Source of the DNA: Dehalococcoidia bacterium
GTDB lineage: Bacteria > Chloroflexota > Dehalococcoidia > Lucifugimonadales > GCA-2712585
NCBI GenBank assembly: GCA_965207845.1
Contig: CBDBNU010000002.1
Span: 805,129-869,128 of the forward strand
Length of the DNA stretch: 64,000 nt
Direction of reading: 5' to 3'
Shown: one piece after another, positions 17,279 to 61,996 of the stretch
How the letters are laid out: each line of letters starts with the position of its first letter
Position numbering within the stretch: the stretch's first letter is position 1
Translations under genes and position numbers: made by a program
The notes under the pieces: model-generated
Told to the model about the DNA's origin: nothing
Seen by the model: only the letters and a program-made list of their open reading frames with translations
Database searches by the model: none

Positions 17279-17569
17279 GTCTGACGAATCGTTAGGGCAA
17301 GATTGTTCTTGTGGGGGATGATTTCGGTGACGGAATTCACCCCCATCCCTTCGGGAGACTCAGGGCAGGCTCCAACCTTCCCCCGTCGAGGGGGAAGGGG
17401 TTTTTTAGGAAGAATAGGGGCGGGTATGGAACCCGCCCCTATTGTGTTGAGGGATATTGCGTGTGTGGGCCTGCGTGAGGGTGATGGGTGTCGGGGTGGG
17501 CGAGGACCGGGGGCGAGATTCTTCGTCGTGGAGCCTCCTCAGAGTATCTGTGTTGAGAATCAAGGGTAT

Positions 17570-18511
17570 TCAGGTAGAAGAGGAGGGATTGGGGACCCAG
17601 GGAGTGCCGCGTTGGGCAACGGCGCTGAGGAGCAACAGGAGCTTACGCATGACGGCGGTGAGGGCGAGTTTGCCGGACTTGCCGCGACGACGGAGTCCTT
17701 GATAGAAGTTTTTGAGGTCGTAGTTATGTCGAACGGCGGAGAGGGCAGCCATGTAGAGGGCGCTGCGCACCTTGGCGCGTCCACCGCGGATGGAGCGATA
17801 GCCCCTTCGGGCGCCGCTGTCCTTGGACCAGGGGGCGAGGCCTACGAGGGAGGAGAGCTGTCTGCCGTTGTAGAGGCCCAACTCTGGGAGGTAGACGGCC
17901 AGTATGGCGCTGGTCTGCTGGCCCACGCCTGGGACACTCTGGTAGAGATCGGTCTTGCGGGTCAAGAGTTGGCACTGGTGCAATCTCTTGTGGCACTCCT
18001 TGTCGAGGCGCTGGATCTCGTTATCGAGCCATTTGATGTGGCGCTGCATAGAGGAGCGAGCGTCTTTGGCAACGCCTTTGTCGAGCCGGTTCTTCTCCCG
18101 GGTTCGCTCCTGTACCAGCTGTCGACGACGGCTTAGCAGGTCTCTGAGTTCCTCCTCCTCGGTGTTCGGAGAGATGGTGTTGGACAACTCAAAGGTCTCT
18201 CCGTAGCGGGAGAGCATTTGGGCGTCTAGGCGGTCGGTCTTGGCCTGGTTACCCACTATACGGGCGAAGTTGCGTACCCGGTTGGGGTGGATTGGGTGCT
18301 CATTGATCTCCGAGTCCCTGACGGCTTTGACGAGGGGTCTCTCATAGCCGCCGGTGGTTTCGTATACCAGGTGGGTGACGCTGCAGCTTCGCAACCAGCC
18401 CAGCAGCCGGGCTATCTCCTTTTGGTTGTTGTCAAAGCGCTGGGGTGAACCTCCTGACACTGACACGTCCAGGCTTCTCTTACCCACGTCCACTCCCGCT
18501 ACTACTTTCAC
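17570..18511 (-). CDS. IS110 DEDD recombinase/transposase
   Basis: GVDVGK, YETTG and KTDRLDA (DEDD), then SVPGVG and LAPWSKDSG (catalytic Ser). GTG start follows GAGGAGG. Confidence 0.95.
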   Translation of the reverse strand: MKVVAGVDVGKRSLDVSVSGGSPQRFDNNQKEIARLLGWLRSCSVTHLVYETTGGYERPLVKAVRDSEINEHPIHPNRVRNFARIVGNQAKTDRLDAQMLSRYGETFELSNTISPNTEEEELRDLLSRRRQLVQERTREKNRLDKGVAKDARSSMQRHIKWLDNEIQRLDKECHKRLHQCQLLTRKTDLYQSVPGVGQQTSAILAVYLPELGLYNGRQLSSLVGLAPWSKDSGARRGYRSIRGGRAKVRSALYMAALSAVRHNYDLKNFYQGLRRRGKSGKLALTAVMRKLLLLLSAVAQRGTPWVPNPSSST

Positions 18512-18539
18512 TTTGTGCACCTCCTCATCTATAATGCTT

Positions 18540-18718
18540 CTTGTCCTCCACACTTGCGATACGGGCCATTATGCCCAGGCATCCGTTCGGAGCGACATAG
18601 CGGCGTGAGGGGTGTCCAACTCTGAACGGCGCAGGGACCTTACTTGCAGTTCCCTCGCCCAATGACAGTCGACGCGCCCCTCTCGCCCGCCCTCCAGATT
18701 GGCCTATCTGGGGGGCTT
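18540..18718 (-). ncRNA. Predicted IS110 bridge RNA (copy 1)
   Basis: 5' hairpin, target-binding loop (UGUCAUU / UCAGA) and donor-binding loop (ACGGAUGC / GCAAGU). Ends approximate. Confidence 0.8.
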
Positions 18719-18799
18719 TTGCAATCATACAAATGACATGTGGGTGGAGAGGGAGGGGGAATTGGGGGTTAGGCGGTAGCATCCGTAGCTAAATCAGGG

Positions 18800-19260
18800 G
18801 ATTCTGGATTCCGGCTTTCGCCGGAATGAGGGTTATGCAGGAGTCTTCGTCGAGGGGTGAGGGAAGAAGAGTGGGCCCCCGCGTTCGCGGGGGAACGGGA
18901 GGGTTGGGCGGTGACGACGAGATGTGTCGTGGGTAGAGGGGGAGGGCGGTTCGCGAACCGCCCCTACGGGAGGTTGGTTGTGGGCAGGGGGTTGATTCCT
19001 GCCTTTTCAGGAACGAGATAGTGGGGGGATATCCTCATCCCTTCGGAAGACTCAGGGCAGGCTCTAACTTCCTCCCAGGATGGAGGGCTTTGCGTAACTG
19101 CTGAATGCCCCATCCACACCACCCGAATCACCCCCATCTCAATCTTCCCCCATCGAGGGGGAAGAGGCTAAGAGACGCCGACGGGGGGTTGGGCGAGGAC
19201 CGGGGGCGAGATTCTTCGTCGCGAGGCCTCCTCAGAATGACATGTGGATGGAGGGGGAGG
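18800..19260 (+). repeat. Mosaic cluster of palindromic repeats including an empty IS110 target (19208-19242)
   Basis: CTGGATTCCGGCTTTCGCCGGAATGA, GGGCCCCCGCGTTCGCGGGGGAAC, GGGCGGTTCGCGAACCGCCCCTAC, a truncated M1 MITE and GAGATTCTTCGTCGCGAGGCCTCCTCAGAATGACA. Confidence 0.85.
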
Positions 19261-19277
19261 GTGGGGAGGGAGTGGGG

Positions 19278-19565
19278 TTAGGGGGCTATTTGGAAGCGTT
19301 CGGATTCCGGGGGGCGGGACCATAGGTCGGGTGCGCCGGCCATGGCGGCGGCTCGTTCGGGGCTGGCGCGCCACTGGTCGTAAATTTCGTTGCTGTCCCA
19401 GGTGACGAGGGAAGTGATTTTCGTGGGGTCTGCGAGGGAGTAGAGGGTGGTTCTAGTTCCGAAGCCCGGGGCTTGGCTTTGGGCGCGTCCGTTGCCGTCC
19501 AAGAGGGTCTTGGCTTCGTCGATTTTGTCGTCCTTAGCCCAGTGGTGGGTCAAAATTCCGATCAT
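19278..19565 (-). CDS. Antibiotic biosynthesis monooxygenase (ABM) family protein
   Basis: 95 aa, QAPGF...LVTWDS...W pattern, AGGAG RBS. Confidence 0.75.
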   Translation of the reverse strand: MIGILTHHWAKDDKIDEAKTLLDGNGRAQSQAPGFGTRTTLYSLADPTKITSLVTWDSNEIYDQWRASPERAAAMAGAPDLWSRPPESERFQIAP

Positions 19566-19600
19566 GTTGACTCCTTTTTGTGGTTGGTTGGGGGTTGGGG

Positions 19601-20017
19601 TTATTTGGCCAGAAGGAATATGGCTCCGGCGGCGAGGATGACGCCGATTATTCTTTCGACGCTGATGGGTTCCTTGAGGATGAGAAAGCCCAAGACCGCA
19701 ACGATGGCGATGTTCATGCCAAACAGGGGGTAGACGGTGGAAACGGGGCCACGGCTGAGGGCCACGTACTGGCTGACGATGGCTACGGTCAGGGCGATTC
19801 CTGAGATCACGAGGAGGAGGGTTGGCTGATTCATGCCAAGGTGGTCGGTGACTTTGACGCCGCGGTAGAGGGCCCAGATGAGAGCGCCAACGACGAGGAA
19901 GGTGTTGGTGACGACGACGGCGGCCTCCGGGGGGATGCTGCGGAGGGAGAATTTGAGGAGGATGACCATGACGGCGTAGGACGACATGGCTATCAGAGTC
20001 CAGACAATATAGTGCAC
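19601..20017 (-). CDS. EamA/DMT family transporter
   Basis: ALSRGPVSTVYPL and ILKEPIS...IGVIL. Confidence 0.85.
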   Translation of the reverse strand: MHYIVWTLIAMSSYAVMVILLKFSLRSIPPEAAVVVTNTFLVVGALIWALYRGVKVTDHLGMNQPTLLLVISGIALTVAIVSQYVALSRGPVSTVYPLFGMNIAIVAVLGFLILKEPISVERIIGVILAAGAIFLLAK

Positions 20018-20331
20018 GGGTCGTCTCTCCTGGGTTGGGTGGTTCGTGTGCCTATTGTACAGGAAAGGCTCAATCTTCCCCCATCAAGGAGAGTTTTCAC
20101 CCTTACCCCTTTGACAGACTCAGGGCAGGCTTTAGTCCTCTCCCTCAGAGAGAGGGGGTTTTGCGAAGGTCTACGTTGAGGAGAAGAGTGGGCCCCCGCG
20201 TTCGCGGGGGAACGGGAGGGTGGTTCGCGAACCGCTCCTACGGGAGAGGGGAGCACAGAAGGGCGGCTACTGGTACGAGATTCTTCGTCGCGGGGCCTCC
20301 TCAGAGTATCTGTGTTGAGAATCAAGGGTAT

Positions 20332-21273
20332 TCAGGTAGAAGAGGAGGGATTGGGGACCCAGGGAGTGCCGCGTTGGGCAACGGCGCTGAGGAGCAACAG
20401 GAGCTTACGCATGACGGCGGTGAGGGCGAGTTTGCCGGACTTGCCGCGACGACGGAGTCCTTGATAGAAGTTTTTGAGGTCGTAGTTATGTCGAACGGCG
20501 GAGAGGGCAGCCATGTAGAGGGCGCTGCGCACCTTGGCGCGTCCACCGCGGATGGAGCGATAGCCCCTTCGGGCGCCGCTGTCCTTGGACCAGGGGGCGA
20601 GGCCTACGAGGGAGGAGAGCTGTCTGCCGTTGTAGAGGCCCAACTCTGGGAGGTAGACGGCCAGTATGGCGCTGGTCTGCTGGCCCACGCCTGGGACACT
20701 CTGGTAGAGATCGGTCTTGCGGGTCAAGAGTTGGCACTGGTGCAATCTCTTGTGGCACTCCTTGTCGAGGCGCTGGATCTCGTTATCGAGCCATTTGATG
20801 TGGCGCTGCATAGAGGAGCGAGCGTCTTTGGCAACGCCTTTGTCGAGCCGGTTCTTCTCCCGGGTTCGCTCCTGTACCAGCTGTCGACGACGGCTTAGCA
20901 GGTCTCTGAGTTCCTCCTCCTCGGTGTTCGGAGAGATGGTGTTGGACAACTCAAAGGTCTCTCCGTAGCGGGAGAGCATTTGGGCGTCTAGGCGGTCGGT
21001 CTTGGCCTGGTTACCCACTATACGGGCGAAGTTGCGTACCCGGTTGGGGTGGATTGGGTGCTCATTGATCTCCGAGTCCCTGACGGCTTTGACGAGGGGT
21101 CTCTCATAGCCGCCGGTGGTTTCGTATACCAGGTGGGTGACGCTGCAGCTTCGCAACCAGCCCAGCAGCCGGGCTATCTCCTTTTGGTTGTTGTCAAAGC
21201 GCTGGGGTGAACCTCCTGACACTGACACGTCCAGGCTTCTCTTACCCACGTCCACTCCCGCTACTACTTTCAC
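20332..21273 (-). CDS. IS110 DEDD recombinase/transposase
   Basis: Translation identical to copy 1. Confidence 0.95.
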   Translation of the reverse strand: MKVVAGVDVGKRSLDVSVSGGSPQRFDNNQKEIARLLGWLRSCSVTHLVYETTGGYERPLVKAVRDSEINEHPIHPNRVRNFARIVGNQAKTDRLDAQMLSRYGETFELSNTISPNTEEEELRDLLSRRRQLVQERTREKNRLDKGVAKDARSSMQRHIKWLDNEIQRLDKECHKRLHQCQLLTRKTDLYQSVPGVGQQTSAILAVYLPELGLYNGRQLSSLVGLAPWSKDSGARRGYRSIRGGRAKVRSALYMAALSAVRHNYDLKNFYQGLRRRGKSGKLALTAVMRKLLLLLSAVAQRGTPWVPNPSSST

Positions 21274-21301
21274 TTTGTGCACCTCCTCATCTATAATGCT
21301 T

Positions 21302-21480
21302 CTTGTCCTCCACACTTGCGATACGGGCCATTATGCCCAGGCATCCGTTCGGAGCGACATAGCGGCGTGAGGGGTGTCCAACTCTGAACGGCGCAGGGAC
21401 CTTACTTGCAGTTCCCTCGCCCAATGACAGTCGACGCGCCCCTCTCGCCCGCCCTCCAGATTGGCCTATCTGGGGGGCTT
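21302..21480 (-). ncRNA. Predicted IS110 bridge RNA (copy 2)
   Basis: Same sequence as the copy 1 non-coding end. Confidence 0.8.
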
Positions 21481-21610
21481 TTGCAATCATACAAATGACA
21501 TTTGGGTTGCGGGGGAACGGGAGGGTTGGGTGGTATTGACTATGGTGGAGGGTTGGTACAGAATCCCACTTGGGGAAGGGTGGCGGCGTAGCAACAGTTG
21601 TGGAGGGGTG

Positions 21611-22960
21611 ATGATTTACGATTCGGCCCAAGGAAATATAACCATCGCGGTGGCGGGGGACGCCATGATTACGCGTCCGATGCGGATGTACCGGGAGCCG
21701 TCCTTCCTGAAACTGGTGGAGCTGCTGAAGGGGGCGGACGCGAGTGTGGTGAACCTGGAGATGCTCTTTCACGACTACGAAATGAGCTGGGAATACAAGG
21801 ATACGGTGTCGTTCCAGGTGTCGGAGCCTGCCAATATCACGGAGTTGCAGTGGATGGGGTTCGACGTGGTGACGACAGCGAACAACCACTCCTACGACTA
21901 CTCGGAGGCGGGGTTTATGAAGACGCTTCAGCATTGCAGGGAGCAGGGGCTGAAGCAGGCGGGGGGAGGAAGGGACCTGGACCACGCACGGGCGCCGGCG
22001 TATCTGGACACGGCGGGGGGGCGGGTGGCGGTGATGAGCGCGACGACGACTTTTTCCAAGGACTCGCCGGCGGGATTCGGCAGGCCGGACTTTCCGGGAA
22101 AGCCGGGGGTGAACGCGCTACGGCATAGCGTGATGCACCACGTGGAGCGGGATGTGTTCGATGCGCTGCACAAGGCAAATGATGAGTTGGGATTCAGGGA
22201 AACGGAGCTGGCGGGTCGGCGGTTCCATCCCGTGAATGCGGATGAGTACGATCCGACGCGGGAGGCGCGGTTCATGGGGGGCAAGTTTGCGCTGGCGGAG
22301 GAGTTTGGCATCACGACGGCTTGCAACAGGGACGACCTTGCTGGGATAGGCAACTGGATTCGGGGAGCGAAGAAGGCGGCGGACTGGCCGGTCTACGGGG
22401 TACACTGTCACGAGAGCGGCGAAGACGGGGAGTTTCACGGGGCCTCGCGGATTGCGCCGCCGAAGTTCCTGGAGGAGTTTGCTCACTTCAGCATAGACCG
22501 GGGGTGCAGCCTGTTCTTTGCGCACGGGCCGCACTTTCTGAGGGGCATTGAGATCTATAAGGGCAAGCCAATTTTCTACAGCCTGGGGAATTTTATATTT
22601 CAAAATGAGACGGTTCAGTGGGTGCCGGAGCCGGTGTACAGAGGGCTGAACCTGAGGGACGAGCACAACCCGGGGGACTGGGGGCTGGCCCGTTCCGGCG
22701 GAGAGAGGTTCGGTTTTGCGGCTGACCCCGTCTTCTACCGGAGCGTGGTGGCGCTGTGCGACTACCGGGATGGGGACTTGAAGGAGATCCGGCTGCATCC
22801 GATAGACTTGGGATTCATGCAGCCGATGAGCCAGCGGGGACGCCCGGTGATGGCCCACGGGCCGGTGGCGCAGCAGTCGCTTCGGTGGCTACAGCAGGTG
22901 TCGAAGCCGTACGGGACGGAGATTAGCATTGAGGGGGATGTGGGGGTCATACGGCTATAG
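21611..22960 (+). CDS. CapA/PGA_cap family metallophosphoesterase-like protein
   Basis: AVAGD, VVNLE, ANNHSYDY, HGPH, YSLGNFIF. Start at ATG 21611 after GGAGG. Confidence 0.88.
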   Translation: MIYDSAQGNITIAVAGDAMITRPMRMYREPSFLKLVELLKGADASVVNLEMLFHDYEMSWEYKDTVSFQVSEPANITELQWMGFDVVTTANNHSYDYSEAGFMKTLQHCREQGLKQAGGGRDLDHARAPAYLDTAGGRVAVMSATTTFSKDSPAGFGRPDFPGKPGVNALRHSVMHHVERDVFDALHKANDELGFRETELAGRRFHPVNADEYDPTREARFMGGKFALAEEFGITTACNRDDLAGIGNWIRGAKKAADWPVYGVHCHESGEDGEFHGASRIAPPKFLEEFAHFSIDRGCSLFFAHGPHFLRGIEIYKGKPIFYSLGNFIFQNETVQWVPEPVYRGLNLRDEHNPGDWGLARSGGERFGFAADPVFYRSVVALCDYRDGDLKEIRLHPIDLGFMQPMSQRGRPVMAHGPVAQQSLRWLQQVSKPYGTEISIEGDVGVIRL

Positions 22961-22973
22961 GCCGGAGGTTGTC

Positions 22974-23139
22974 ATGTGTAGAAGTATGTCAGTCTTTGCC
23001 AGAAGTAGACGACCAAAATTGAATTGCGAGAACATTGATACCCGTGTGTAGAAGCATGTCAGTTTTTGCATTGATTCAACCAGTTCTACAAGGTCGCCAA
23101 CGCAGAGGGATTCATGTGTAGGAGCATCAAGACTTTACG
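22974..23139 (+). repeat. Three ~26-bp direct repeats with exact 70-bp period
   Basis: ATGTGTAGAAGTATGTCAGTCTTTGC (22974), GTGTGTAGAAGCATGTCAGTTTTTGC (23044) and the more diverged ATGTGTAGGAGCATCAAGACTTTACG (23114). Confidence 0.7.
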
Positions 23140-23341
23140 GCAGGTTGATCGAGCGGCCACCTCAGAGGAGATAGAGGCGGCAGCGCTGCAGTTCGTACGA
23201 AAGATCAGCGGATATCGTAAGCCTTCGAGGGTCAACGCAGAGGCTTTTGATGATGCTGTGCGGGTGGTTGCGGAGGCGTCGGAGCGGTTGCTGGGCAGGC
23301 TGACGTCGCGTCGTAATTCGTCGGGAAGCGTCGGCGGCTGA
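23114..23341 (+). CDS. DUF2277 family protein
   Basis: MCRSIKTL...AALQFVRKISG..KPS signature. Confidence 0.85.
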   Translation: MCRSIKTLRQVDRAATSEEIEAAALQFVRKISGYRKPSRVNAEAFDDAVRVVAEASERLLGRLTSRRNSSGSVGG

Positions 23342-23404
23342 GGGCTGTCGAGGGACCGACAAGACCACGAATTCTAGAGATGATTCGCAACTGATGGTCC
23401 GTCC

Positions 23405-24700
23405 GTGATTGTAGGCTGGCTCATTTCCAAACCGAGGAATCTTTTCTATGGCTGGTGGATTGTGGGCGCCGGCCTGGTGAGCATGACGCTTTCTTCCGGG
23501 CTGTTCTTCAACGGGTTCGGGTTTTACTTTCTGCCGATACAGTCGCAATTTGGGTGGAGCAGCACGGCGATGTCCGGGGCCGTCTCGCTTTCCAGGTTGG
23601 AGAGCGGGCTGCTGGGGCCGTTGGAGGGGTATCTGATCCAGCGATACGGGCCGCAGAGGGTGATGCTGGTGGGGTACCTGGTGTTTGCGGCGGGGTTTGC
23701 CCTGCTGAGCCAGTCCAGCCACATTGTAATTTTCTATTTGGCGATACTGGTGATGGCGTTGGGTTCGGGGTTGGCGGGATTCGCGGCGGTGGTGGCGGCG
23801 ATCAACAACTGGTTCCGTCGGAACAAGACCAAGGCATTCGGGATATCCATGCTTGGGCTGGGGCTTGGGGGAGTGATTTTCTCGTCATTTCTGGCTTGGT
23901 CGATAGCGGAGTATGGGTGGGAGATGACGGCGCTGTTTTCAGCGGGGATTCTGCTGATTGTGGGCGTTCCTATTTCCAGGATGGTCCGATACAGCCCGGA
24001 ACCATACGGCCTGCTGCCGGACGGGGACGACCCGGAGGAAGAGGAGGAATCGTCAACGGAGGAGAGGCCGAGGCGACGGGTGGATCCGATGGCGGACGAG
24101 GACTTTACGTGGAAGGAAGCTTTGCAGACGCCGGCGTTCTGGATTATTTCCGTGTGTCACGCGCTGGCGTTGGTGGCCATCTCGGCGACGGGAGTGCACC
24201 AGGTAGCGTACATGGAGGAAGACCTGGGGTTGTCGGGGGCGAGCGCGGCGCTGGTTGTGGTGGTGCTTTCCTCGGTGATGATGGTGTGTCAGCCGGTGGG
24301 GGGATTCCTGGGGGACCGGTATTCGAAGAGGCACATAGCGGCGATATGTCTGCTGGGGCACGGGGTGGCGATGGTACTGCTGGCGATGGCGACGGGGTTC
24401 GGGTTTCTGATGATTTACGCGGTGGTGCAGGGGCTGGCGTGGGGGACGCGGGGGCCGATAATCACGGCGATGCGGGGCGACTACTTCGGTCGGAAGGACT
24501 TTGCGCTGATCAACGGGTATTCGCAGGTGATTATGATGATGGGGATGATTGTGGGGCCGCTATTGGCCGGGATCATGGCCGACAACTACAGTTATCAGAG
24601 CGGATTTCTGATTATCGCGGGGCTGGTGGCAATGGGTTCGATTCTGTTCTTGATTATGAGGAAGCCCGTGAAGAAGAATAGGGAGAGGGCGGCAGGGTGA
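23405..24700 (+). CDS. MFS transporter (MCT/OFA-like)
   Basis: FYGWWIV, WFRRNK, GFLGDRYSKR, DYFGRK. Confidence 0.88.
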   Translation: MIVGWLISKPRNLFYGWWIVGAGLVSMTLSSGLFFNGFGFYFLPIQSQFGWSSTAMSGAVSLSRLESGLLGPLEGYLIQRYGPQRVMLVGYLVFAAGFALLSQSSHIVIFYLAILVMALGSGLAGFAAVVAAINNWFRRNKTKAFGISMLGLGLGGVIFSSFLAWSIAEYGWEMTALFSAGILLIVGVPISRMVRYSPEPYGLLPDGDDPEEEEESSTEERPRRRVDPMADEDFTWKEALQTPAFWIISVCHALALVAISATGVHQVAYMEEDLGLSGASAALVVVVLSSVMMVCQPVGGFLGDRYSKRHIAAICLLGHGVAMVLLAMATGFGFLMIYAVVQGLAWGTRGPIITAMRGDYFGRKDFALINGYSQVIMMMGMIVGPLLAGIMADNYSYQSGFLIIAGLVAMGSILFLIMRKPVKKNRERAAG

Positions 24701-24731
24701 GCCGGAGAATTCGTCCAGAAGAAGGAGGAGA

Positions 24732-25241
24732 GTGTTGATAAGGAGCCTTGGCGGAAAGACGCCGCGCATTGCGGAGACGGCGTGGGTGAGCGAGTTTGCC
24801 TACGTGATTGGGGACGTGGAGATTGGGGAGCATTCCAGTGTTTGGCCGGGGGTGACGATTCGAGGGGACGGGGACGGGCCGGTGGTGCTGGGGAATTACG
24901 TGAACGTGCAGGAAGGGTCGGTGATTCACGGGAACCACATGGTGATTGAGGACTATGTGACGGTGGGTCATTGCGTGGTGGTGCACTGCCAGCGAATTGG
25001 GGAGGGGTCTCTGATGGGGAATAACAGCACGATTTTGAACGGGACGACGGTGGGGAAGCGGTGCCTGGTGGCGGCGAACGCAGTGGTGCTGGCGAATGCG
25101 GAGGTGCCGGAGGGGTCTTTTGTGACGGGGGTGCCTGGGAAGGTGAAGCGTCCGGTGACGGAGGCGCAGGTTGAGCGGATGATGCGGACGGCGCGAAGCC
25201 TGGCGGCGAAGGCGGAGGTGTTCAAGGAGGAAGGGGTCTAG
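24732..25241 (+). CDS. Gamma carbonic anhydrase family protein
   Basis: Hexapeptide repeats, IRGD, NVQEGSVIH, VTVGH...VH. Confidence 0.88.
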   Translation: MLIRSLGGKTPRIAETAWVSEFAYVIGDVEIGEHSSVWPGVTIRGDGDGPVVLGNYVNVQEGSVIHGNHMVIEDYVTVGHCVVVHCQRIGEGSLMGNNSTILNGTTVGKRCLVAANAVVLANAEVPEGSFVTGVPGKVKRPVTEAQVERMMRTARSLAAKAEVFKEEGV

Positions 25242-25730: not shown

Positions 25731-25791
25731 GAGGAAGATACCCTCATCCCTTCGGAAGACTCAGGGGAGGCTCTAACCTTCTCCCAGGACG

Positions 25792-25912: not shown

Positions 25913-25977
25913 CAGGACGGGAGAGGGGAGGGACGGGGGGTGCGGTTTGGGGTGTGGGTTGGCGTTGAAGGGAGAGA

Positions 25978-26835: not shown

Positions 26836-26845
26836 TTCGGTTCGG

Positions 26846-27337: not shown

Positions 27338-27386
27338 GGTTGTGGGCGCCTATTCTCAGTGGGTTCTTGATGTTTCCTGAATTGGG

Positions 27387-41790: not shown

Positions 41791-41992
41791 GAGATTCTTC
41801 GTCGCGGGGCCTCCTCAGAATGACATTTGGGTTGGAGGGGGAAGGGTGGAGAGGGGGAACGGGGAGACCCTCAACCCTTCGGAAGACTCAGGGCAGGCTC
41901 TAACCTTCTCCCAGGACGGGAGAAGGGAGGGAACGGGTAGGGAGGCCCCCCCACTACTAGATTCTTCGTCGGGGGGCCTCCTCAGAATGACA
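41791..41992 (+). repeat. Repeat cluster with two empty IS110 targets (41791-41825, 41958-41992)
   Basis: Two copies of AGATTCTTCGTCGNGGGGCCTCCTCAGAATGACA around a CCCTTCGGAAGACTCAGGGCAGGC unit. Confidence 0.88.
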
Positions 41993-49413: not shown

Positions 49414-50232
49414 GTGGGTAGGGGTGCGGGCATCGGCGAGTTGGAGGGGATTGCCAGGGAGTCGCGTCGCAACATTTTGAAGATGGTCTATGAGGCGGGG
49501 AGCGGGCACCCGGGTGGATCGCTTTCGGAGATTGACATTCTGACGGCGCTTTACTTTCGGGTGATGCGGGTGGACCCGGCGAATCCGCGGTGGGAAGGCC
49601 GAGACCGGTTTATTCTGAGCAAGGCACATGCGTGTCCGGGCTTGTATGCGACGCTGGCGGCGAGGGGATTCTTTCCCGAAGAGGAATTGCTGACATTTCG
49701 TAAGATAGACAGCCGACTGCAGGGGCACGCCCACGTTAAGACGCCGGGGGTGGAGATGAGCGGGGGTTCTTTGGGGCAGGGGCTTTCCTTCGGAGTCGGA
49801 TGCGCGCTGTCGGCGCGGCTGGACGGGTTGGACCATCGGGTGTTTGTGATGCTGGGCGACGGCGAATGCGACGAGGGGCAAGTGTGGGAAGCGGCGATGT
49901 CGGCTTCGCATTATGGTTTGGGTAACCTGGTTGCTATTGTGGACCGGAACGGCATTCAGAATGACAGGTTTACGGACGAGGTGATGAGGTTGGAGCCGCT
50001 GGCGCAGAAGTGGGGGGCCTTCGGGTGGAGGGTCGTCGAGATTGACGGGCACGACATGTGCGCCGTGGTGGAGGGATTGGAGGAGGCGTCGGCCGGAGAG
50101 GGTGGGCCAACGGTGATTATCGCCAAGACGGTGAAGGGGAAGGGGATCAGCTTCATGGAGAACAACCCCGCATTTCATGGAGCTTCGCCGAATGAGGAAG
50201 AGTTCCAACGGGCGCTGGCTGAGCTGGCATGA
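49414..50232 (+). CDS. Transketolase, N-terminal subunit
   Basis: GHPGGSLS, GSLGQG, GDGECDEG. Confidence 0.92.
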   Translation: MGRGAGIGELEGIARESRRNILKMVYEAGSGHPGGSLSEIDILTALYFRVMRVDPANPRWEGRDRFILSKAHACPGLYATLAARGFFPEEELLTFRKIDSRLQGHAHVKTPGVEMSGGSLGQGLSFGVGCALSARLDGLDHRVFVMLGDGECDEGQVWEAAMSASHYGLGNLVAIVDRNGIQNDRFTDEVMRLEPLAQKWGAFGWRVVEIDGHDMCAVVEGLEEASAGEGGPTVIIAKTVKGKGISFMENNPAFHGASPNEEEFQRALAELA

Positions 50233-54249: not shown

Positions 54250-54415
54250 TATTCTCTGCCTCATCACAAGTTGGCGAATTGGAAGGGATTTGTGTGGGGG
54301 CACGTTCTCCAGTTCGAATGAAAGTATATCAGATAGATTGCAGCTCGAGGTGATGGGTCGCGACTATGAGAGGGGGGTACTTAAGGACAGTTGGAAGGTT
54401 GAGGACGCGGACCAA

Positions 54416-54937
54416 TCAGCGTCTGCCTTCTTGAAACAGAGCGGTCATGGCCAGGTTTTGGAGGGACCACATGTGGGCTTTTTCTTGTTCGTCGTAGTGA
54501 TCGTGACCGAGGAGGTGTAGGATGCCGTGGATGACGAGGAGGGCGGTCTCTTTTTGGGGAGAATGGCAAGCCTCGGCGGCCTGCCGGTGGGCCTGGGGGA
54601 GGCAAACGATAACGTCGCCGAGGTAGGGGGGGTCGTTGGGTGGTGTGGGGAAGGCGGAGTGGGGTTCTGGCTGGAAGGGTTGGGGGTCGTCGTCGCCCTG
54701 CCAGGGGCCGTCGTGAGTTGAGGAGAAGGCGAGAACGTCGGTGATTTTATTTTCGCCACGGAAACGGGAGTTGAGGTCCAGGATTGTGTCGTCGTCGCAG
54801 AGGGCGAGAGTCAGCTGGCAGTCCTGTTTGGGGAAGCCGGCGTCGAGAGCGGCGAGGGCGGCGCTGTTCAGGCAGGCTTCGGGAGGAGAGGAGGGGAGGC
54901 CTTCTTGGATGGAGAGATGGATTTGGCGGTTGGGCAT
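54416..54937 (-). CDS. ybeY: rRNA maturation endoribonuclease YbeY
   Basis: TDVLAF, LGDV, HGILHLLGHDH. Confidence 0.93.
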   Translation of the reverse strand: MPNRQIHLSIQEGLPSSPPEACLNSAALAALDAGFPKQDCQLTLALCDDDTILDLNSRFRGENKITDVLAFSSTHDGPWQGDDDPQPFQPEPHSAFPTPPNDPPYLGDVIVCLPQAHRQAAEACHSPQKETALLVIHGILHLLGHDHYDEQEKAHMWSLQNLAMTALFQEGRR

Positions 54938-55060
54938 GGGCGTTTGGGATAGGATGTTAGCACGGGTTGCGGTTGGGTGGTAGAGGGTGGAGGAGCGGGT
55001 CCCCGTCTCCGTCAGGGGGAAAGGAGGAAAGGGGGGGAGGGTTGGACGTCAATCGGGGGC

Positions 55061-55095
55061 GAGATTCTTCGTCGCGGAGCCTCCTCAGAATGACA
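55061..55095 (+). repeat. Empty IS110 target repeat
   Basis: GAGATTCTTCGTCGCGGAGCCTCCTCAGAATGACA. Confidence 0.88.
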
Positions 55096-55118
55096 GGTGG
55101 GTATAGGGAGGTTGAAAA

Positions 55119-55147
55119 TTGACAGTGTATGGAGGGGTTATTACAAT
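55119..55147 (+). promoter_or_regulatory. Sigma70-type promoter upstream of sdhA
   Basis: TTGACA-N17-TACAAT. Confidence 0.78.
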
Positions 55148-55278
55148 GGGCGCTGACCCCACTGTCGTAATCCCTATTGATGGGCAGATGGCACCTTTGA
55201 GGGAACGGCGGTGGAGGCTATGCCACTTGACCCTGCTGCTTGTGCAAATAGTATTGCGGGGAAGCGAGAGGAGGGCCC

Positions 55279-56925
55279 TTGCCTCAACATGACGTATTAG
55301 TAGTTGGCGGCGGATTTGCGGGACTGCGGGCGGCCCTGGGCGCTCGGGCGTCCGGCGCAGACGTTGCGGTGATTTCCAAGGTGCATCCGATGCGGAGCCA
55401 CTCTTCGGGAGCACACAGCGGAATAAACGCAGCGTTGAAGTCTGGGGATTCCTGGGAGGCCCACGCGAAGGATACGATTGCCGCGGGCGGAGACCTTTCG
55501 GACCGGAAGGCGGTGGAGGTGATGTGTCAGAGTGCCGCGTCGGACGTGGTGGCGCTGGAGCACATGGGAGTCATCTTCAATCGAGATGCGGAGGGGCGGA
55601 TAGACGTTACGGCCTTTCCGGGCTCGTCCCAGGCCAGAACGGCTTATGTGGGAGACTCCGCGGGACACGTTATATTGCAGGTGCTGTTCGAGCAGCTGGT
55701 TCGGAATGAGATCCGCATCTACGATGAGTGGTTCGCCGGGTCGCTTCTGGTCGAGGATGGGATGTGCAAGGGGATCATCGCCCGGGACCTGAGGACGGGA
55801 GAGCTTCATCCTTTCCACTCCAAGGCCGTAGTGATGGCGACGGGGAACCTGGGCCAGATGTATAACGGCGGCACGTGTTCGCTTACAGGCACGGGGGACG
55901 GAGTGGCGCTTGCGTACAGGGCAGGGGTGCCTCTGATAGACATGGAGATGATGCAATATCATCCGACTACGCTGGGAGACAGGGGAATTCTGATTACGGA
56001 GGGAGTGCGGGCCGAGGGCGCTCACCTGGTGAACAAGAAGGGCGAGCGATTCATGGAGCGGTACGACGCCGACGCGATGGAGATGTCCACGAGGGACGTG
56101 GTGGCTAGGGCGGCGCTGACGGAGGTGAGGAAGAACAGGGGAGAGAAGGGGCACATTTTCCTGGACATGCGACACCTGGACAAGGCGCGGATGACGGAGC
56201 GGCTGCAGGAGACTCTGTGGATGGTGGACGATCTGGAGGGGTTGGACCCTTCTGAAGACCTGATTCCCGTGAAGCCCGGGATGCATCGTCCGCTGGGCGG
56301 GATAAAGATCGACACGTTCGGGGCCACGGGACTGTCCGGCCTGTTTGCCGCCGGGGAGTGCGCTTCCTCCGGGGTTCACGGAGCGAACCGGCTGGGCGGG
56401 AACTCACTCCTGGACTGCATTGTGTTCGGCCGCAGGGCCGGAGAGTCGGCCAGCCGCCACGCACGTGGTGTGACCTGGAGGGCTGCGACGGCGGACCTGG
56501 TGCAGCAGCAGGAGGATGGGCTCAACGAGGTAACGGCGAAGGACGCGAACAGCGACACCCCCGGGGCGGTGCGTCGGGACCTGGGCGAGATCATGGACAA
56601 GAACGTGGGGATAGTGCGGAATCTGAGGGGCCTGAGGCGAGCTGCTAATGCGGCGGCCAAGCTGCAGGAGCGTTTTGCGGCGCTGGGAGTGCGTGACAAG
56701 AGCGGGGCCTACAACATGGAGCTCAGGTCTTTGAGGGAGCTGGGGAACATGTTGGACGTGGCGCAGGTGATTATCGCCAGCGCGGAGGCCCGCGAGGAGA
56801 GTCGTGGGGCGCACTTCAGGTCGGACTTCCCCGACAGGGACGACGAGAATTGGATGAAGCGCATCGTCGCGACGTGTGGAGATGAGGGGCCGAAGCTGGA
56901 CTACGAGCCTGTGGAGGCCGATTGA
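55279..56925 (+). CDS. sdhA: Succinate dehydrogenase/fumarate reductase flavoprotein
   Basis: GGGFAG, RSHS, QYHPT, TEGVRAEG, HGANRLGGNSL, REESRGAH. Confidence 0.88.
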   Translation: MPQHDVLVVGGGFAGLRAALGARASGADVAVISKVHPMRSHSSGAHSGINAALKSGDSWEAHAKDTIAAGGDLSDRKAVEVMCQSAASDVVALEHMGVIFNRDAEGRIDVTAFPGSSQARTAYVGDSAGHVILQVLFEQLVRNEIRIYDEWFAGSLLVEDGMCKGIIARDLRTGELHPFHSKAVVMATGNLGQMYNGGTCSLTGTGDGVALAYRAGVPLIDMEMMQYHPTTLGDRGILITEGVRAEGAHLVNKKGERFMERYDADAMEMSTRDVVARAALTEVRKNRGEKGHIFLDMRHLDKARMTERLQETLWMVDDLEGLDPSEDLIPVKPGMHRPLGGIKIDTFGATGLSGLFAAGECASSGVHGANRLGGNSLLDCIVFGRRAGESASRHARGVTWRAATADLVQQQEDGLNEVTAKDANSDTPGAVRRDLGEIMDKNVGIVRNLRGLRRAANAAAKLQERFAALGVRDKSGAYNMELRSLRELGNMLDVAQVIIASAEAREESRGAHFRSDFPDRDDENWMKRIVATCGDEGPKLDYEPVEAD

Positions 56926-57010
56926 CGGGGGCAGAAAAAGGTTGGGAGTTTGATGGACGTAGAGTTAGGGCAGACAATCGAGAATCTGCCGTTGTAATCA
57001 GGAAGGAGTC

Positions 57011-57982
57011 TTGAAGATGGAAGTGAAATTTGCGGTCAAGCGATACGATCCGATAACCAACGCAGACAGTTCCACGCAGAACTATACCGCAGAGGTTGGG
57101 GAGGGGGATATGGTGCTGGACGCTCTGCTGAAGATTCGGGACGAGCAGGACCCGACGCTGGCGTTTCGGGGAAGCTGCCGGACGGGGTTTTGCGGGGACT
57201 GCACCATGACGGTGAATGGCAAGGGGGCGATTGCGTGCCGGACGAAGGTGAAGAAGGCGTGGGACGGGGCGGATGACGGCGCGATTGAGCTTGAGCCGCT
57301 CAAGATGAGTCGGACGATGAAGGACCTGGTCTACAACGCGAGGGAATTCCACTGGAACAAATTCAGGGCGGTGGAGCCTTGGGTTGATCCGGTGCAGCCA
57401 CCTGAGGAGGGGGAGCACCTGGTGCCGGGCGGACACAGCAAGCATCTGCAGGAAGCGATGAGGTGCACCCAGTGCGGGTTGTGCGACCAGGGTTGCACGG
57501 TACTGGTGGTAGACAAGACCTTCGTGGGGCCGGCGGCGTTGACGAAGGCGTACCGGGCGGTTGCCGACGAGCGGGACAGCCGGAAGCGCCAACGATTGGA
57601 CAAGCTGAGTCTACCGAGGGGCATGTGGGATTGCACGCACTGCTTCGAGGCCAGCGAGCACTGTCCGAAGTACATTGAGCCGACGGACCGGATATTTGAC
57701 CTGCACGACATGGCCATCAAGGCGGAGGCAGGGCCTCCCAAGGTGGTGCATCACTACAAGAGCTTTGCCGCCTCGGTGAAGGCCCACGGCTGGCTGGACG
57801 AGGGTCGTCTGGCGATTGAGACAGAAGGTTATACGAATGTGAAGGGGCTGATGAAGCTGCTGCCCTTCGCGGTGAAGGCGGCGGTGAAGGGGAAGCGGCC
57901 GATGCCGTATATGCTTCACAAGAAGCGGCCCGGAGCCGAGCGTATCAAGAGGATCTTCGAGAAGTGGGAGTCTTCCGGATAG
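57011..57982 (+). CDS. sdhB: Succinate dehydrogenase/fumarate reductase Fe-S subunit
   Basis: SCRTGFCGDC, CTQCGLCDQGC, CTHCFEASEHCP. Confidence 0.9.
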   Translation: MKMEVKFAVKRYDPITNADSSTQNYTAEVGEGDMVLDALLKIRDEQDPTLAFRGSCRTGFCGDCTMTVNGKGAIACRTKVKKAWDGADDGAIELEPLKMSRTMKDLVYNAREFHWNKFRAVEPWVDPVQPPEEGEHLVPGGHSKHLQEAMRCTQCGLCDQGCTVLVVDKTFVGPAALTKAYRAVADERDSRKRQRLDKLSLPRGMWDCTHCFEASEHCPKYIEPTDRIFDLHDMAIKAEAGPPKVVHHYKSFAASVKAHGWLDEGRLAIETEGYTNVKGLMKLLPFAVKAAVKGKRPMPYMLHKKRPGAERIKRIFEKWESSG

Positions 57983-58025
57983 GAGACTGCTTTTCTAATT
58001 TGACAACATTTTCAGGAGGCGCTCC

Positions 58026-58946
58026 ATGACGACCAACGGACAGGTGAAGACGAAATACGCATTCTATCCCGGCTGCGTGTCGAAGGGCGGCTGCCCTGAA
58101 CTGTATGAAGCGGTTGTGCAGGTGGCGGAAAAGCTGGGATTCGAACTTGACGATGAGGTGTTGGAAAGCGCGGGATGCACCGGCGCGGGCGTGTTGAGCA
58201 AAGAGGTTTCGGACCCCATCAACGCCCGCACCTTCGCCATGGCAGAGTCGGCGGGACTTGAGATAATGACGATTTGCAGCACCTGCCAGGGGATTATGAC
58301 GCAGGCCCACCACCGATTGAAGGACGAAGAATACCGGACGATGATCAACCGAGAGTTCCTTGCTGAGGAGGGGTTGGTGTACAAGGGGACGACGGTTATA
58401 CGTCACATGCTCTGGGCCATCGTGGAGGACTTCGGGCTTGAGAAGCTGAAGTCGATGGTGACCCATCCGCTGAACGGGATGCCGATTGCGCACTTCTACG
58501 GCTGTTACATGAAGCGTCCGCCGGAATTGATGGTGCCTAAAGAGTTCGCCAAGACGAGGAAGACTGCCTTGGAAGATGTAATCGAGGCGCTGGGCGGCAA
58601 GGCTGTGAAGACTTCCGGCAGGGGCAAGTGCTGCGGCTTTCCAATTTTGACGTCGAACGAGGACAACTCCATGGCAATGTTGGGGGACCATACGCTGGAC
58701 GCGAAGGCGAAAGGGGTAAAGGCGATGGTGACTCCCTGCCCGCTGTGCCACCTGCAACTGGACGGGAAGCAGGCGGACGCCGAGGAGCACAAGGGGGAGG
58801 AGATAGACTTGCCGGTGTTCCATCTGCCGCAGCTAGTGGGGTTGGCTTTGGGATTCAGCCCCAAGGAGATGAACCTGCAGCGGCATCTGGTGTCGACGAG
58901 GGGTATAGAGGAGGAGTTGGGGCTGGGCGTCGAGGTGAAGGCGTAG
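58026..58946 (+). CDS. HdrB-like CCG-domain protein (SdhE-type anchor)
   Basis: FYPGC, CSTC, FYGC, CCG, PCPLCH, HLPQLVGLALG. Confidence 0.88.
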   Translation: MTTNGQVKTKYAFYPGCVSKGGCPELYEAVVQVAEKLGFELDDEVLESAGCTGAGVLSKEVSDPINARTFAMAESAGLEIMTICSTCQGIMTQAHHRLKDEEYRTMINREFLAEEGLVYKGTTVIRHMLWAIVEDFGLEKLKSMVTHPLNGMPIAHFYGCYMKRPPELMVPKEFAKTRKTALEDVIEALGGKAVKTSGRGKCCGFPILTSNEDNSMAMLGDHTLDAKAKGVKAMVTPCPLCHLQLDGKQADAEEHKGEEIDLPVFHLPQLVGLALGFSPKEMNLQRHLVSTRGIEEELGLGVEVKA

Positions 58947-59003
58947 GTCCGGGATTGACTGCCGGTCGAGCAGGAAGTGAGACTCTCCATCTAAGGATGG
59001 CGT

Positions 59004-59477
59004 ATGGCTAAGAGGTATTGGCTATTCAAGTCGGAACCTTCCGCGTATTCGTTTGACGACCTGGTGGATGACGGAGTTGCGGAGTGGGACGGGGTGAGGA
59101 ACTACCAGGCGCGAAACTTGCTGCGGGACGACATCAAGGAGGGGGACGAGATACTGTTTTATCACAGCAGTACGAAGCCCCTGGCGGTGATTGGCACGGC
59201 GGTTGTTGTGAATGAGGGCTACCCGGATGCGACGGCGTGGGACCCTAAGTCGGAGCACCCGGACGCCAAGAGCACGCCGGACAATCCCATCTGGTACATG
59301 GTTGACATAAAGGCGACGAGGCGATTTCTGCGTCCGGTGACACGGGACATGTTGAAGTCGGCGCCGGAGCTTAAGGAGATGATGGTGCTTCGTCGGGGGG
59401 CGCGGCTGTCAATTCAGCCGGTGACGGAGGGGGAGTGGGAGTCGGTGGTGCGTATGGGGAATACGCCGGCGGACTAG
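59004..59477 (+). CDS. EVE domain protein
   Basis: YWLFKSEP, WDGVRNYQARN, FYHS, RLSIQPV. Confidence 0.93.
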   Translation: MAKRYWLFKSEPSAYSFDDLVDDGVAEWDGVRNYQARNLLRDDIKEGDEILFYHSSTKPLAVIGTAVVVNEGYPDATAWDPKSEHPDAKSTPDNPIWYMVDIKATRRFLRPVTRDMLKSAPELKEMMVLRRGARLSIQPVTEGEWESVVRMGNTPAD

Positions 59478-59664
59478 GGTTTTGGGGTTAGGGTTCTCCC
59501 ACGAGATTCGGTGGAGAGTTAGTGTGGTGGCAGGTTTGAAGAAGCCTGCCACCTTTTATTTTGGGAGGGGTCGGGCGCTCGGAGGGGGTGGATGGTGTAG
59601 GCAGGGTATTGGTTCCTGCCTTCGCAGGAACAAGAAGAGGGGGAGGGTGGTTCTCTACGGCAAC

Positions 59665-59699
59665 GAGATTCTTCGTCGTGGAGCCTCCTCAGAATGACA
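59665..59699 (+). repeat. Empty IS110 target repeat within a segment paralogous to the flanks of IS copy 3
   Basis: GAGATTCTTCGTCGTGGAGCCTCCTCAGAATGACA. Flanks match 60683-60773 and 61963-61986. Confidence 0.9.
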
Positions 59700-59893
59700 T
59701 GTGGGAGGAGGGGGAAGGGCGAAGAGGAGAGGGTGCGGGTAGAGGGGTGGCAAGAGCCTTCGGCTTCACTCCACTTTCCTCAGGGTAACAAGTTGGAATT
59801 GGGAGGAAGAGTGGCTCCCCGCGTCCGCGGGGGAACGGGGAGGGGACGGGCAACTACGATGTTCGCCGATGCCGAGGGGGAAGACTAGAGGGA

Positions 59894-60053
59894 TTACGGC
59901 GGTGGCGTTTCGTTGGGGTCCGGTTTGTGGGGGCGGTTTTGGCGTATGTCGTCGAGCTTGTGGCGGAGGATGCTCCGTCGCTGCCTGGAGGCGAGACGTC
60001 GCCAGGGTCTTCGGCTAAGGATGGAGGACGGCTTGAGGGAGACGCCTCGCTGG
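59894..60053 (-). pseudogene. Diverged duplicate of the 3' end of the MFS gene at 61997-63442
   Basis: Colinear with 61997-62156 (...RQNRPHKPDPNETPPP*), with scattered substitutions and no 5' part. Confidence 0.8.
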
Positions 60054-60255
60054 CTGTACTTAATGCCACGCGGACACCCTTGCCTAGCGTCCGTTTAAAT
60101 TGAACACACAGGCCGTTCAGGCGCTACAAACTGCGGAACACTGGTATTGTGTCCAGCCTCGGATACGCAACGCCGATTGGAGGGCTTGCCCTGACGAGGT
60201 GCTGGGCCACATTCCAGCGAGGGTCATCAGGAAAGGGCATAAAGTAGATGAAAGC

Positions 60256-60423
60256 ATGAGTAAACGATCGAACACCTCGATCGGTGTAGGACTAGCACTC
60301 GAAATTGGAGTTGGCGCAGCCATAGGCTCGTCACTCGGCAACATCGGCCTAGGCGTGGCAGTGGGAATCGTCTTCGGCATCGTGTTCGGTATCGCTTTGG
60401 GCAGCGAACGTGACAAAGGGTAG
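60256..60423 (+). CDS. Small glycine-zipper membrane protein
   Basis: 55 aa with GxxxG repeats. Confidence 0.6.
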   Translation: MSKRSNTSIGVGLALEIGVGAAIGSSLGNIGLGVAVGIVFGIVFGIALGSERDKG

Positions 60424-60799
60424 GCAGTGGTGACATTCTCCGATCACTGCAGCTTAAGAGACATTGGAGAGCCGGATTGGGGTGAAAGAGTCACCGGAGG
60501 CATATCTTTTCGCGGAGGGATGCTTTCGTGCAGGGAGCAGAATTGGTTCCCGTATACGCGGGGTAGGGAGGGATCGCCGAATCTCTTCGACGAGTTCAGA
60601 GGAGGTCTTAAGGGACTTCCCCATAAAAGGGGAAGGGTGAAGATTGGGAAGGTTGACGCTAAGGTTGAGGTAGGGTGTGGCTAGGGTATTGGTTCCTGTC
60701 TTCGCAGAAACAAGAAGAGGGGGAGGGTGGTTCTCTACGGCAACGAGATTCTTCGTCGCGGGGCCTCCTCAGAGTATCTGTGTTGAGAATCAAGGGTAT

Positions 60800-61741
60800 T
60801 CAGGTAGAAGAGGAGGGATTGGGGACCCAGGGAGTGCCGCGTTGGGCAACGGCGCTGAGGAGCAACAGGAGCTTACGCATGACGGCGGTGAGGGCGAGTT
60901 TGCCGGACTTGCCGCGACGACGGAGTCCTTGATAGAAGTTTTTGAGGTCGTAGTTATGTCGAACGGCGGAGAGGGCAGCCATGTAGAGGGCGCTGCGCAC
61001 CTTGGCGCGTCCACCGCGGATGGAGCGATAGCCCCTTCGGGCGCCGCTGTCCTTGGACCAGGGGGCGAGGCCTACGAGGGAGGAGAGCTGTCTGCCGTTG
61101 TAGAGGCCCAACTCTGGGAGGTAGACGGCCAGTATGGCGCTGGTCTGCTGGCCCACGCCTGGGACACTCTGGTAGAGATCGGTCTTGCGGGTCAAGAGTT
61201 GGCACTGGTGCAATCTCTTGTGGCACTCCTTGTCGAGGCGCTGGATCTCGTTATCGAGCCATTTGATGTGGCGCTGCATAGAGGAGCGAGCGTCTTTGGC
61301 AACGCCTTTGTCGAGCCGGTTCTTCTCCCGGGTTCGCTCCTGTACCAGCTGTCGACGACGGCTTAGCAGGTCTCTGAGTTCCTCCTCCTCGGTGTTCGGA
61401 GAGATGGTGTTGGACAACTCAAAGGTCTCTCCGTAGCGGGAGAGCATTTGGGCGTCTAGGCGGTCGGTCTTGGCCTGGTTACCCACTATACGGGCGAAGT
61501 TGCGTACCCGGTTGGGGTGGATTGGGTGCTCATTGATCTCCGAGTCCCTGACGGCTTTGACGAGGGGTCTCTCATAGCCGCCGGTGGTTTCGTATACCAG
61601 GTGGGTGACGCTGCAGCTTCGCAACCAGCCCAGCAGCCGGGCTATCTCCTTTTGGTTGTTGTCAAAGCGCTGGGGTGAACCTCCTGACACTGACACGTCC
61701 AGGCTTCTCTTACCCACGTCCACTCCCGCTACTACTTTCAC
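60800..61741 (-). CDS. IS110 DEDD recombinase/transposase
   Basis: Translation identical to copy 1. Confidence 0.95.
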   Translation of the reverse strand: MKVVAGVDVGKRSLDVSVSGGSPQRFDNNQKEIARLLGWLRSCSVTHLVYETTGGYERPLVKAVRDSEINEHPIHPNRVRNFARIVGNQAKTDRLDAQMLSRYGETFELSNTISPNTEEEELRDLLSRRRQLVQERTREKNRLDKGVAKDARSSMQRHIKWLDNEIQRLDKECHKRLHQCQLLTRKTDLYQSVPGVGQQTSAILAVYLPELGLYNGRQLSSLVGLAPWSKDSGARRGYRSIRGGRAKVRSALYMAALSAVRHNYDLKNFYQGLRRRGKSGKLALTAVMRKLLLLLSAVAQRGTPWVPNPSSST

Positions 61742-61769
61742 TTTGTGCACCTCCTCATCTATAATGCTT

Positions 61770-61948
61770 CTTGTCCTCCACACTTGCGATACGGGCCATT
61801 ATGCCCAGGCATCCGTTCGGAGCGACATAGCGGCGTGAGGGGTGTCCAACTCTGAACGGCGCAGGGACCTTACTTGCAGTTCCCTCGCCCAATGACAGTC
61901 GACGCGCCCCTCTCGCCCGCCCTCCAGATTGGCCTATCTGGGGGGCTT
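61770..61948 (-). ncRNA. Predicted IS110 bridge RNA (copy 3)
   Basis: Same sequence as the copy 1 non-coding end. Confidence 0.8.
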
Positions 61949-61996
61949 TTGCAATCATACAAATGACATGTGGGAGGAGGGGGAAGACTAGAGGGA

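Follow-up and report, generated by a model that had tools for sequence, protein, structure and literature searches.

The stretch of DNA considered here (the window) spans 64,000 nucleotides, C2:805129-869128, of the genome of a Dehalococcoidia bacterium (G000), which comprises 3.47 Mb in three contigs (C1 to C3) with 60% G+C. The window harbours three copies of an insertion sequence (IS) of the IS110 group, located at positions 17544-18732 (copy 1), 20306-21494 (copy 2) and 60774-61962 (copy 3), each of which interrupts the same short repeat. The copies are 1189 bp in length, 100% identical and share one orientation, with the transposase gene on the minus strand.

In the IS110 group, the left end (LE) upstream of the gene is long and non-coding and the right end (RE) is short, an arrangement that is reversed in the IS1111 group (Durrant 2024, PMC11208160). 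The anatomy of the present element is established as that of the IS110 group and is described here for copy 1, where all features lie on the minus strand. The LE covers approximately 221 nt of non-coding sequence (18512-18732; 179 nt to the first possible start codon) and is predicted to encode a bridge RNA, in which loops for target binding and donor binding follow a 5' stem-loop. The gene for the transposase or bridge recombinase follows at 17570-18511 in a frame that stays open to 18553, and its open reading frame (ORF) of 327 codons is open in all six copies of the genome. Translation probably starts at the GTG at 18511, 8 nt past a GGAGG motif. The RE extends 26 nt past the stop codon (17544-17569) and contains the left donor half, ending in ACAGATAC. 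A sigma-70-type promoter sequence is found only across the joined RE-LE ends, composed of a -35 box in the RE (TTGATT; 17558-17563), a spacer of 17 bp and a -10 box in the LE (TATGAT; 18724-18729).

The encoded protein matches the Pfam families DEDD_Tnp_IS110 (PF01548, the N-terminal DEDD RuvC-like domain; 84 bits) and Transposase_20 (PF02371, the C-terminal domain; 64 bits), both above the cut-offs, and scores 200 bits (cut-off 140) against NCBIfam NF033542, “IS110 family RNA-guided transposase”. Residues 19-319 match the IS621 structure 8wt6 with an E value of 1e-36. In the HMMER alignment to 8wt6, the residues aligned to D11, E60, D102, D105 and S241-G242 of IS621 are all identical; the list of catalytic residues is taken from Hiraizumi 2024, and the offset of 2 in the chain numbering of 8wt6 was counted by hand. 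Sequence comparison supports the assignment of the element to the IS110 family as an IS621-like, RNA-guided member.

Upstream of each window copy the host sequence reads ...GAGATTCTTCGTCG(T/C)GG(A/G)GCCTCCTCAGA, and downstream it continues with ATGACAT.... At copy 1, the left half of the split repeat (GAGATTC...CCTCAGA; 17516-17543, plus strand) constitutes the right target (RT) in transposase orientation, and the right half (ATGACATGTGGGT; 18733-18745, plus strand) constitutes the left target (LT). When the six filled sites in the genome are set against 77 empty sites plus a paralogous empty one, a single base at the junction stays ambiguous, a T in transposase orientation. Since only this one base is common to filled and empty sites, there is no target-site duplication. 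The initial annotation of this DNA had described the three window copies as splitting the repeat at an identical point, in one orientation and with no duplication, and the comparison agrees in every respect.

Five intact targets had also been listed for the window, and all of them were found on the plus strand, at 19208-19242, 41791-41825, 41958-41992, 55061-55095 and 59665-59699. The last represents a paralogous empty site, located within 59594-60053, a 94% paralogue of the copy-3 flanks. Accordingly, the pre-insertion form of the copy-3 site is represented by 59594-60053, which is 94% identical to 60674-60773 joined to 61962-62156. This local duplication takes in approximately 160 bp of the 3' end of a minus-strand gene (61997-63442), and its first copy (59594-60053) carries an extra module of 156 bp. 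The uninterrupted 11-mer TGTCATTCTGA occurs six times in the window, compared with 0.02 occurrences expected from shuffled sequences. One of these occurrences (49956-49966, minus strand) is an unoccupied chance match outside the repeat family, which is located in a coding-like ORF and differs in the last RT base from the 12-mer that is covered by the guides.

Genome-wide, BLAST retrieves six full copies of the element, five of which are identical and one of which bears a single substitution at leader position 158. The end of C2 carries in addition a 32-nt IS stub; it overlaps the copy at the end of C1 and therefore represents the same copy. All six copies are inserted into this one repeat at an identical base and with one relative orientation, which establishes the identity of the sites, and a genome-wide check for copies in unrelated sequence yielded none. 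The guide-covered 12-mer CTCAGAATGACA is present at 77 empty sites, and hence 6 of 83 matched sites (about 7%) are occupied. The earlier count of three occupied sites in eight is correct for the window, but does not extend to the genome with its 6 filled and 77 empty sites. For the 11-mer there are 87 empty sites, including three outside the repeat family. None of the near-matching variants is filled: this applies to the subfamily TGTCATT|CCGAG, which is one base off (42 sites), to the CTGAA variant (7 sites) and to the CTTGA variant (12 sites, all within one 122-bp tandem array). The proposal of an abundant, non-coding target is supported; the target lies almost entirely outside coding sequence, as 5 of the 77 empty and 0 of the 6 filled sites overlap coding-like ORFs, which cover 64% of the genome.

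In the model for IS621, the 5' side of an internal loop of the bridge RNA corresponds to the top strand of the left half-site plus the core, and the 3' side forms the complement of the core and the right half-site (Durrant 2024, Hiraizumi 2024). In transposase orientation, the target of the present element reads CATGTCA-TT-CTGAG and the joined ends read ACAGATA-CT-TGTAT. The leader contains segments that match both, on the strands predicted by the IS621 model. The left target guide (LTG), UGUCAUU (18661-18667; leader 66-72; minus strand, as are the other guides), equals the target top strand TGTCA plus the core TT. The right target guide (RTG), UUCAGAGU (18619-18626; leader 107-114), is the complement of top-strand A-TT-CTGAG apart from G.T wobbles in two places, the first core base (position 8) and the final matched base. 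The left donor guide (LDG), ACGGAUGC (18579-18586; leader 147-154), matches the RE end with two G.T wobbles. The right donor guide (RDG) lies in the region GUAUCGCAAGUGU (18550-18562), and the CAAG of its segment GCAAGUGU (leader 176-183) pairs with the core CT and the TG of the LE start. The first internal loop thus covers both sides of the crossover, TGTCATT and CTCTGA(G), and the second loop covers the element's own ends. An alignment of seven related leaders (RNAalifold) yields a consensus of a 5' stem-loop and, after it, a pair of stem-loops with internal loops, in which the guides are located; 15 of the 52 consensus pairs show compensatory changes. The single-sequence fold of the leader has a z score of -2.78.

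The co-variation of guides and flanks among related elements in Dehalococcoidia provides the strongest and, in our view, decisive sequence support for RNA guiding. The comparison included L001 (61% amino-acid identity), L002 (49%), four copies in the genus relative G001, and elements in G039, G040 and G004. Both ends are known for five elements, and in all of these the reverse-complemented RTG agrees with the right junction of its own element at 6-7 of 7 positions, compared with 2-5 of 7 for non-cognate pairs, save for two elements that have one target in common. Between relatives the RTG varies among UCAGAG, GCGGGAG, CUCGCAG and CGUCAAG. For the LTG, agreement with the element's own left flank amounts to 7-8 of 9 positions in six of the seven elements, G004 being the exception with 6 of 9. 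G039 and G040, which have unrelated targets and different LTGs, reach 8 of 9 on their own flanks and 3-6 of 9 on others. The split promoter, TTGA(T/C)N, exactly 17 bp and TATG(A/T)T, likewise arises only across the joined ends in the five elements with both ends known. The proposal that the guide is programmed against the repeat is corroborated by these matches on both sides of the crossover and by their co-variation.

The sister elements (L001, L002, G001, G004 and a remnant in G008) share the leader scaffold, the LTG core GUCAUU and a TT left and CT right junction, and they also enter after GTCATT at the foot of a short repeat. They differ in their RTGs and right flanks (CCCGC, GCGAG, CTAAG), and therefore each sister element targets another repeat subfamily. 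The corresponding subfamilies share the termini TGTCATT...GAATCTCG and have variable interiors. The G008 remnant (L033, G008:C1:800700-802500, positions ~224-310) comprises approximately the first 85 nt of a closely related leader (86% over 59 nt), and hence the IS lineage visited a sister species earlier. It follows CCATGTCAT and is itself followed by two empty TGTCATTCTGAAC... repeats and then, as judged by eye, by a tRNA-like stretch.

Target and donor differ in their cores, with TT in the former and CT in the latter, and every copy has TT at the left and CT at the right junction. A TT left junction and an LTG with a terminal UU are common to this element, L001, L002, G001 and G004. CT is specified by the right junction, RTG and RDG in this element, L001, L002 and G001, and by RTG and RDG in G004 as well. 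In IS621 the top strands are cut and exchanged after T9, which is almost invariant, and position 8 is reported to be less conserved and to lack a protein contact (Hiraizumi 2024). The TT left and CT right junctions are as expected of a top-strand exchange between a TT target core and a CT donor core that differ at position 8. The unequal cores are a variation within the known mechanism.

By analogy to IS621, the element would leave its site as a circle. Joining of RE and LE would then create the promoter, which would transcribe the LE into the bridge RNA. The first internal loop of this RNA would pair with the host repeat and the second with the RE-LE junction of the element itself, ACAGATA-CT-TGTAT. 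Catalysed by the DEDD/Ser recombinase, top-strand exchange would take place behind position 9 in both target and donor, and the element would come to lie between TGTCATT and CTGAG of the repeat, without duplication. Taken together, the element is with high probability an intact and recently expanded IS of the IS110 group, which is guided by its own bridge RNA to a non-coding repeat that is widespread in the genus.

Three other explanations deserve consideration. The transposase protein alone might recognise the repeat, as in classical site-specific recombination, with the leader acting only as a 5' untranslated region or regulatory RNA. The leader is known from its sequence alone and lacks a match in Rfam, and the GUCAUU of the LTG, which is retained in this element, L001, L002, G001 and G004, may reflect mere conservation. 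However, the RTG is wholly different between relatives and in each case the reverse complement of the own right junction; the LTGs of G039 and G040 differ and fit their own left flanks, and in vitro recombination by IS621 is reported to need the RNA (Durrant 2024, PMC11208160). Recognition by the protein alone is therefore very improbable. Even less credible is the notion that the repeat family is not an independent host repeat, but was made or spread by the IS, in the form of footprints or an IS-derived miniature element. The family does have a short, imperfect terminal symmetry (G..ATTC ... GAAT..C), and the arrays at the copy-2 and copy-3 loci are specific to G000. Yet beyond the guide segments the repeat is unlike the IS ends, and BLAST with the IS returns the full copies and one contig-end stub only. 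Furthermore, of 12 relatives in the genus, 11 have the 13-mer target and the IS was found in none of those searched, and excision of IS110 elements is described as scarless, yielding no new sequence (Durrant 2024, PMC11208160). We consider this explanation the least probable of the three.

Somewhat less remote, though still highly unlikely, is a multiplication of the copies mainly through segmental duplication or homologous recombination of a filled site. This would account for an identical flank of 170 bp that the copies at C2:822672 and C1:1048290 share and that occurs nowhere else in the genome, for the location of the copy-3 flanks in a local 94% duplication, and for the presence of five of the six copies within 95.6 kb. 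Against a general role of duplication, the six left flanks all differ, beyond and inside the repeat, and there are five distinct right flanks; a search for repeats of at least 300 nt in the window retrieves the IS alone. The paralogue of the copy-3 flanks is empty and 94% alike, compared with 100% for the IS copies, and so the duplication is older than the insertion of copy 3.

Several points nevertheless weigh against RNA-guided insertion of a recently expanded element, or restrict its scope. The assembly consists of three contigs, and one break falls at an IS copy. Because two copies have the identical 170-bp flank, independent clean insertion is not required for every copy. Of 9 LTG positions only 7 match, the LDG has an unpaired last base besides its two G.T wobbles, and the RTG meets the first core base of the target with a G.T wobble. 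The minimum-energy fold of the single leader sequence lacks the donor-binding loop, which derives from the alignment and the analogy to IS621. No family in Rfam matched the element, its leader included, or the flanks at E values up to 1, although the database may lack a bridge-RNA family. Transcription, the circle and recombination activity would follow by analogy to IS621.

The shared 170-bp flank is located on the leader side (window 18733-18902, corresponding to C2:823861-824030; C1:1048120-1048289), and the opposite flanks of the two copies differ. It may stem from gene conversion or recombination between the copies, from mobilisation of the flank together with the IS, or from an effect of assembly where the contig ends.

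The target repeat is an interspersed, non-coding sequence of approximately 40 nt, for which a profile search yields 165 matches in the genome, of which 117 are close to full length. Of 13 genomes in the genus, 12 contain the 13-mer target (68 in G000, 43 in G003, 0 in G001; reversed control 0), and exact 23-mers of the repeat occur in three other Dehalococcoidia records. The IS was found in G000 alone of 41 genomes, and in none of the 40 related species genomes searched. The repeat is thus older than the IS, as the 13-mer is widespread in the genus; an uninterrupted variant repeat in G003, described below, points the same way.

The loci of copies 1-3 were compared with G003, G006 and G004, and a collinear uninterrupted repeat in a relative is found for copy 1 only. 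The collinear spacer in G003 contains one uninterrupted variant repeat (TCAGGGTGATAT), the right flank of which is collinear with the empty site at 19208 and not with copy 1. The multi-module repeat array of the copy-2 locus (window 20065-20305) has no counterpart in G003, G006 or G004, in which the neighbouring genes are separated by 8-110 bp. That of the copy-3 locus (window 59486-60773) is lacking in G003 and G006, and G004 has no informative match; the G003 spacer of approximately 300 bp contains no member of the target family, and that of G006 is similar in appearance. Since the arrays at both loci are absent from relatives, they expanded in G000.

The description of the repeat as palindromic, as put forward in the initial annotation, is weak. 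Four stretches fold with -1.8 to -5.2 kcal/mol, no better than shuffled sequences (z -0.27 to +1.24), and the sole evident dyad is 5 bp long (ATTCT/AGAAT). For three copies, one of them on both strands, no stable stem-loop was predicted in or next to the repeat as DNA. RAYT genes (Y1 transposase, PF01797) gave 0 matches in G000, the assembly of which is 94.7% complete and may thus miss such a gene; in a control search, 6 of 14 reference genomes were hit. Compared with repetitive extragenic palindromes (REPs) in the strict sense, the repeat is likewise short, abundant, interspersed and extragenic, but it is not predicted to form a stable palindrome, and a cognate RAYT was not found. Owing to the poor palindrome and as no Y1/RAYT gene was found, “REP-like” is a loose description.

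Five of the six IS copies fall inside 95.6 kb, and a cluster as tight as this arose in 80 of 100,000 trials, in which six of the 83 sites were drawn at random. This clustering accounts for the high density of copies in the window. A recent expansion had been proposed based on both the identity and the density of the copies. The near-identity fits a recent expansion, as does the lack of an IS match in the 40 relatives searched, but the density reflects the clustering. Contigs of four public sequencing runs (Logan) were also considered; no RNA run was listed as containing this stretch. In the probable source run the IS unitig has a depth of 29.8 compared with 4.4-5.9 for the flanks (5-7x deeper). 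Run X4 of another study contains a 96.8%-identical IS unitig that ends 6-8 nt into the same target halves, at approximately 4x flank depth, and run X7 contains the neighbouring gene at ~94% identity and no IS contig; as all these observations come from contigs, they are hints only. Several contig joints, e.g., 17564->18654 and 17399->18944, were set aside as uninterpretable, with sides under 30 nt located in repeated modules.

IS621 of Escherichia coli (Choi 2003, Durrant 2024, Hiraizumi 2024) resembles the element in its two-domain DEDD/Ser recombinase, long LE and short RE, and in a leader with a 5' stem-loop and two internal-loop stem-loops, of which LTG and LDG read the bottom strand and RTG and RDG the top strand. 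Further common features are the donor ...AT(A/C)-CT-TGTAT, a promoter split at the RE-LE junction, the lack of a target duplication and an abundant intergenic repeat as natural target. The parallel to IS621, which targets the REPs of E. coli, had already been drawn in the initial annotation and is in print (Durrant 2024, PMC11208160). In contrast to IS621, the present element resides in another phylum (Chloroflexota, Dehalococcoidia) and has a different target sequence, in a repeat that is a poor palindrome and for which no RAYT-type gene was found; its activity is presumed from the analogy. IS621 uses CT in target and donor, whereas here the target has TT and the LTG UU, while RTG, RDG and donor keep CT. 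ISPpu9, ISPpu10 and other IS110 elements have also been reported to recognise REPs (Tobes & Pareja 2006). ISPpu9 and ISPpu10 of Pseudomonas putida are described as similar in that multiple identical copies all reside in one conserved intergenic repeat, many sites of which are unoccupied. The ISPpu10 target reportedly needs a GC-rich stem-loop beside the guide-matched sequence (preprint 10.64898/2026.03.19.712850), in contrast to the repeat described here, for which no stable stem-loop is predicted. A copy-and-paste behaviour, as reported for IS621 in a preprint, would fit the persistence of filled sites while copies accumulate.

The targeting of REPs by IS110 elements is already established, and the present case is a clean example of known behaviour that involves no new mechanism. 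A literature search on IS110 elements in Dehalococcoidia found no published example, and the element thus contributes a natural and well-resolved case of targeting by bridge RNA, in a phylum for which no published case was found. Internal controls are provided by 77 matched empty sites, by 42 empty sites with one mismatch (TGTCATT|CCGAG) and by sister elements with a right guide rewritten towards other repeat subfamilies. These provide material to study how guides evolve in nature, how single mismatches are discriminated and how unequal cores of donor and target are used, and leave the known mechanism unchanged. A more comprehensive reading, to which we assign somewhat less than an even chance, holds that the LTG is fixed on GTCATT in this lineage and the RTG alone is rewritten between repeat subfamilies, that the unequal cores are native, and that the clustering adds a preference for short-range reinsertion. 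If so, GTCATT would be the common terminus of a superfamily of miniature intergenic repeats. The TT would be read as UU by the LTG and the CT as AG by RTG and RDG, and the mismatch at position 8 would be native rather than a tolerated defect.

The repeat family shows some further features. The subfamily ending TCAGAAAAAAGA... was considered as the trace of a second element at the same base; the downstream sequences are unrelated G-rich arrays, and hence it was rejected and regarded as a sequence variant. A tandem array at C2:432292-433639 comprises 12 units of ~122 bp, each of which combines a variant of the target repeat that is one base longer (CTCAAGAATGACA) with a second ...CTCGGAATGACA element. 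In 83 of 84 family repeats, the GAGATTC...AATGACA strand is on the locally G-rich strand (genome-wide, 50-kb skew windows), and the repeat orientation flips with the cumulative GC skew at ~C2:780 kb and C3:1.26 Mb. The window contains G-rich intergenic arrays, e.g., at 18733-19277; such arrays may either cause the skew or follow the polarity of replication or transcription. An interpretation of the skew switch at ~C2:780 kb as the origin, which would render the IS cluster origin-proximal, was dropped, as dnaA is located far off at C3:119.9 kb and coincides with neither switch. Finally, G000 encodes seven additional transposases of the IS110 family that belong to other types and score 60-76 bits on PF01548; their genes are located at C3:1408465, C2:35227, C2:119125, C2:126700, C1:111395, C1:217509 and C1:221798.

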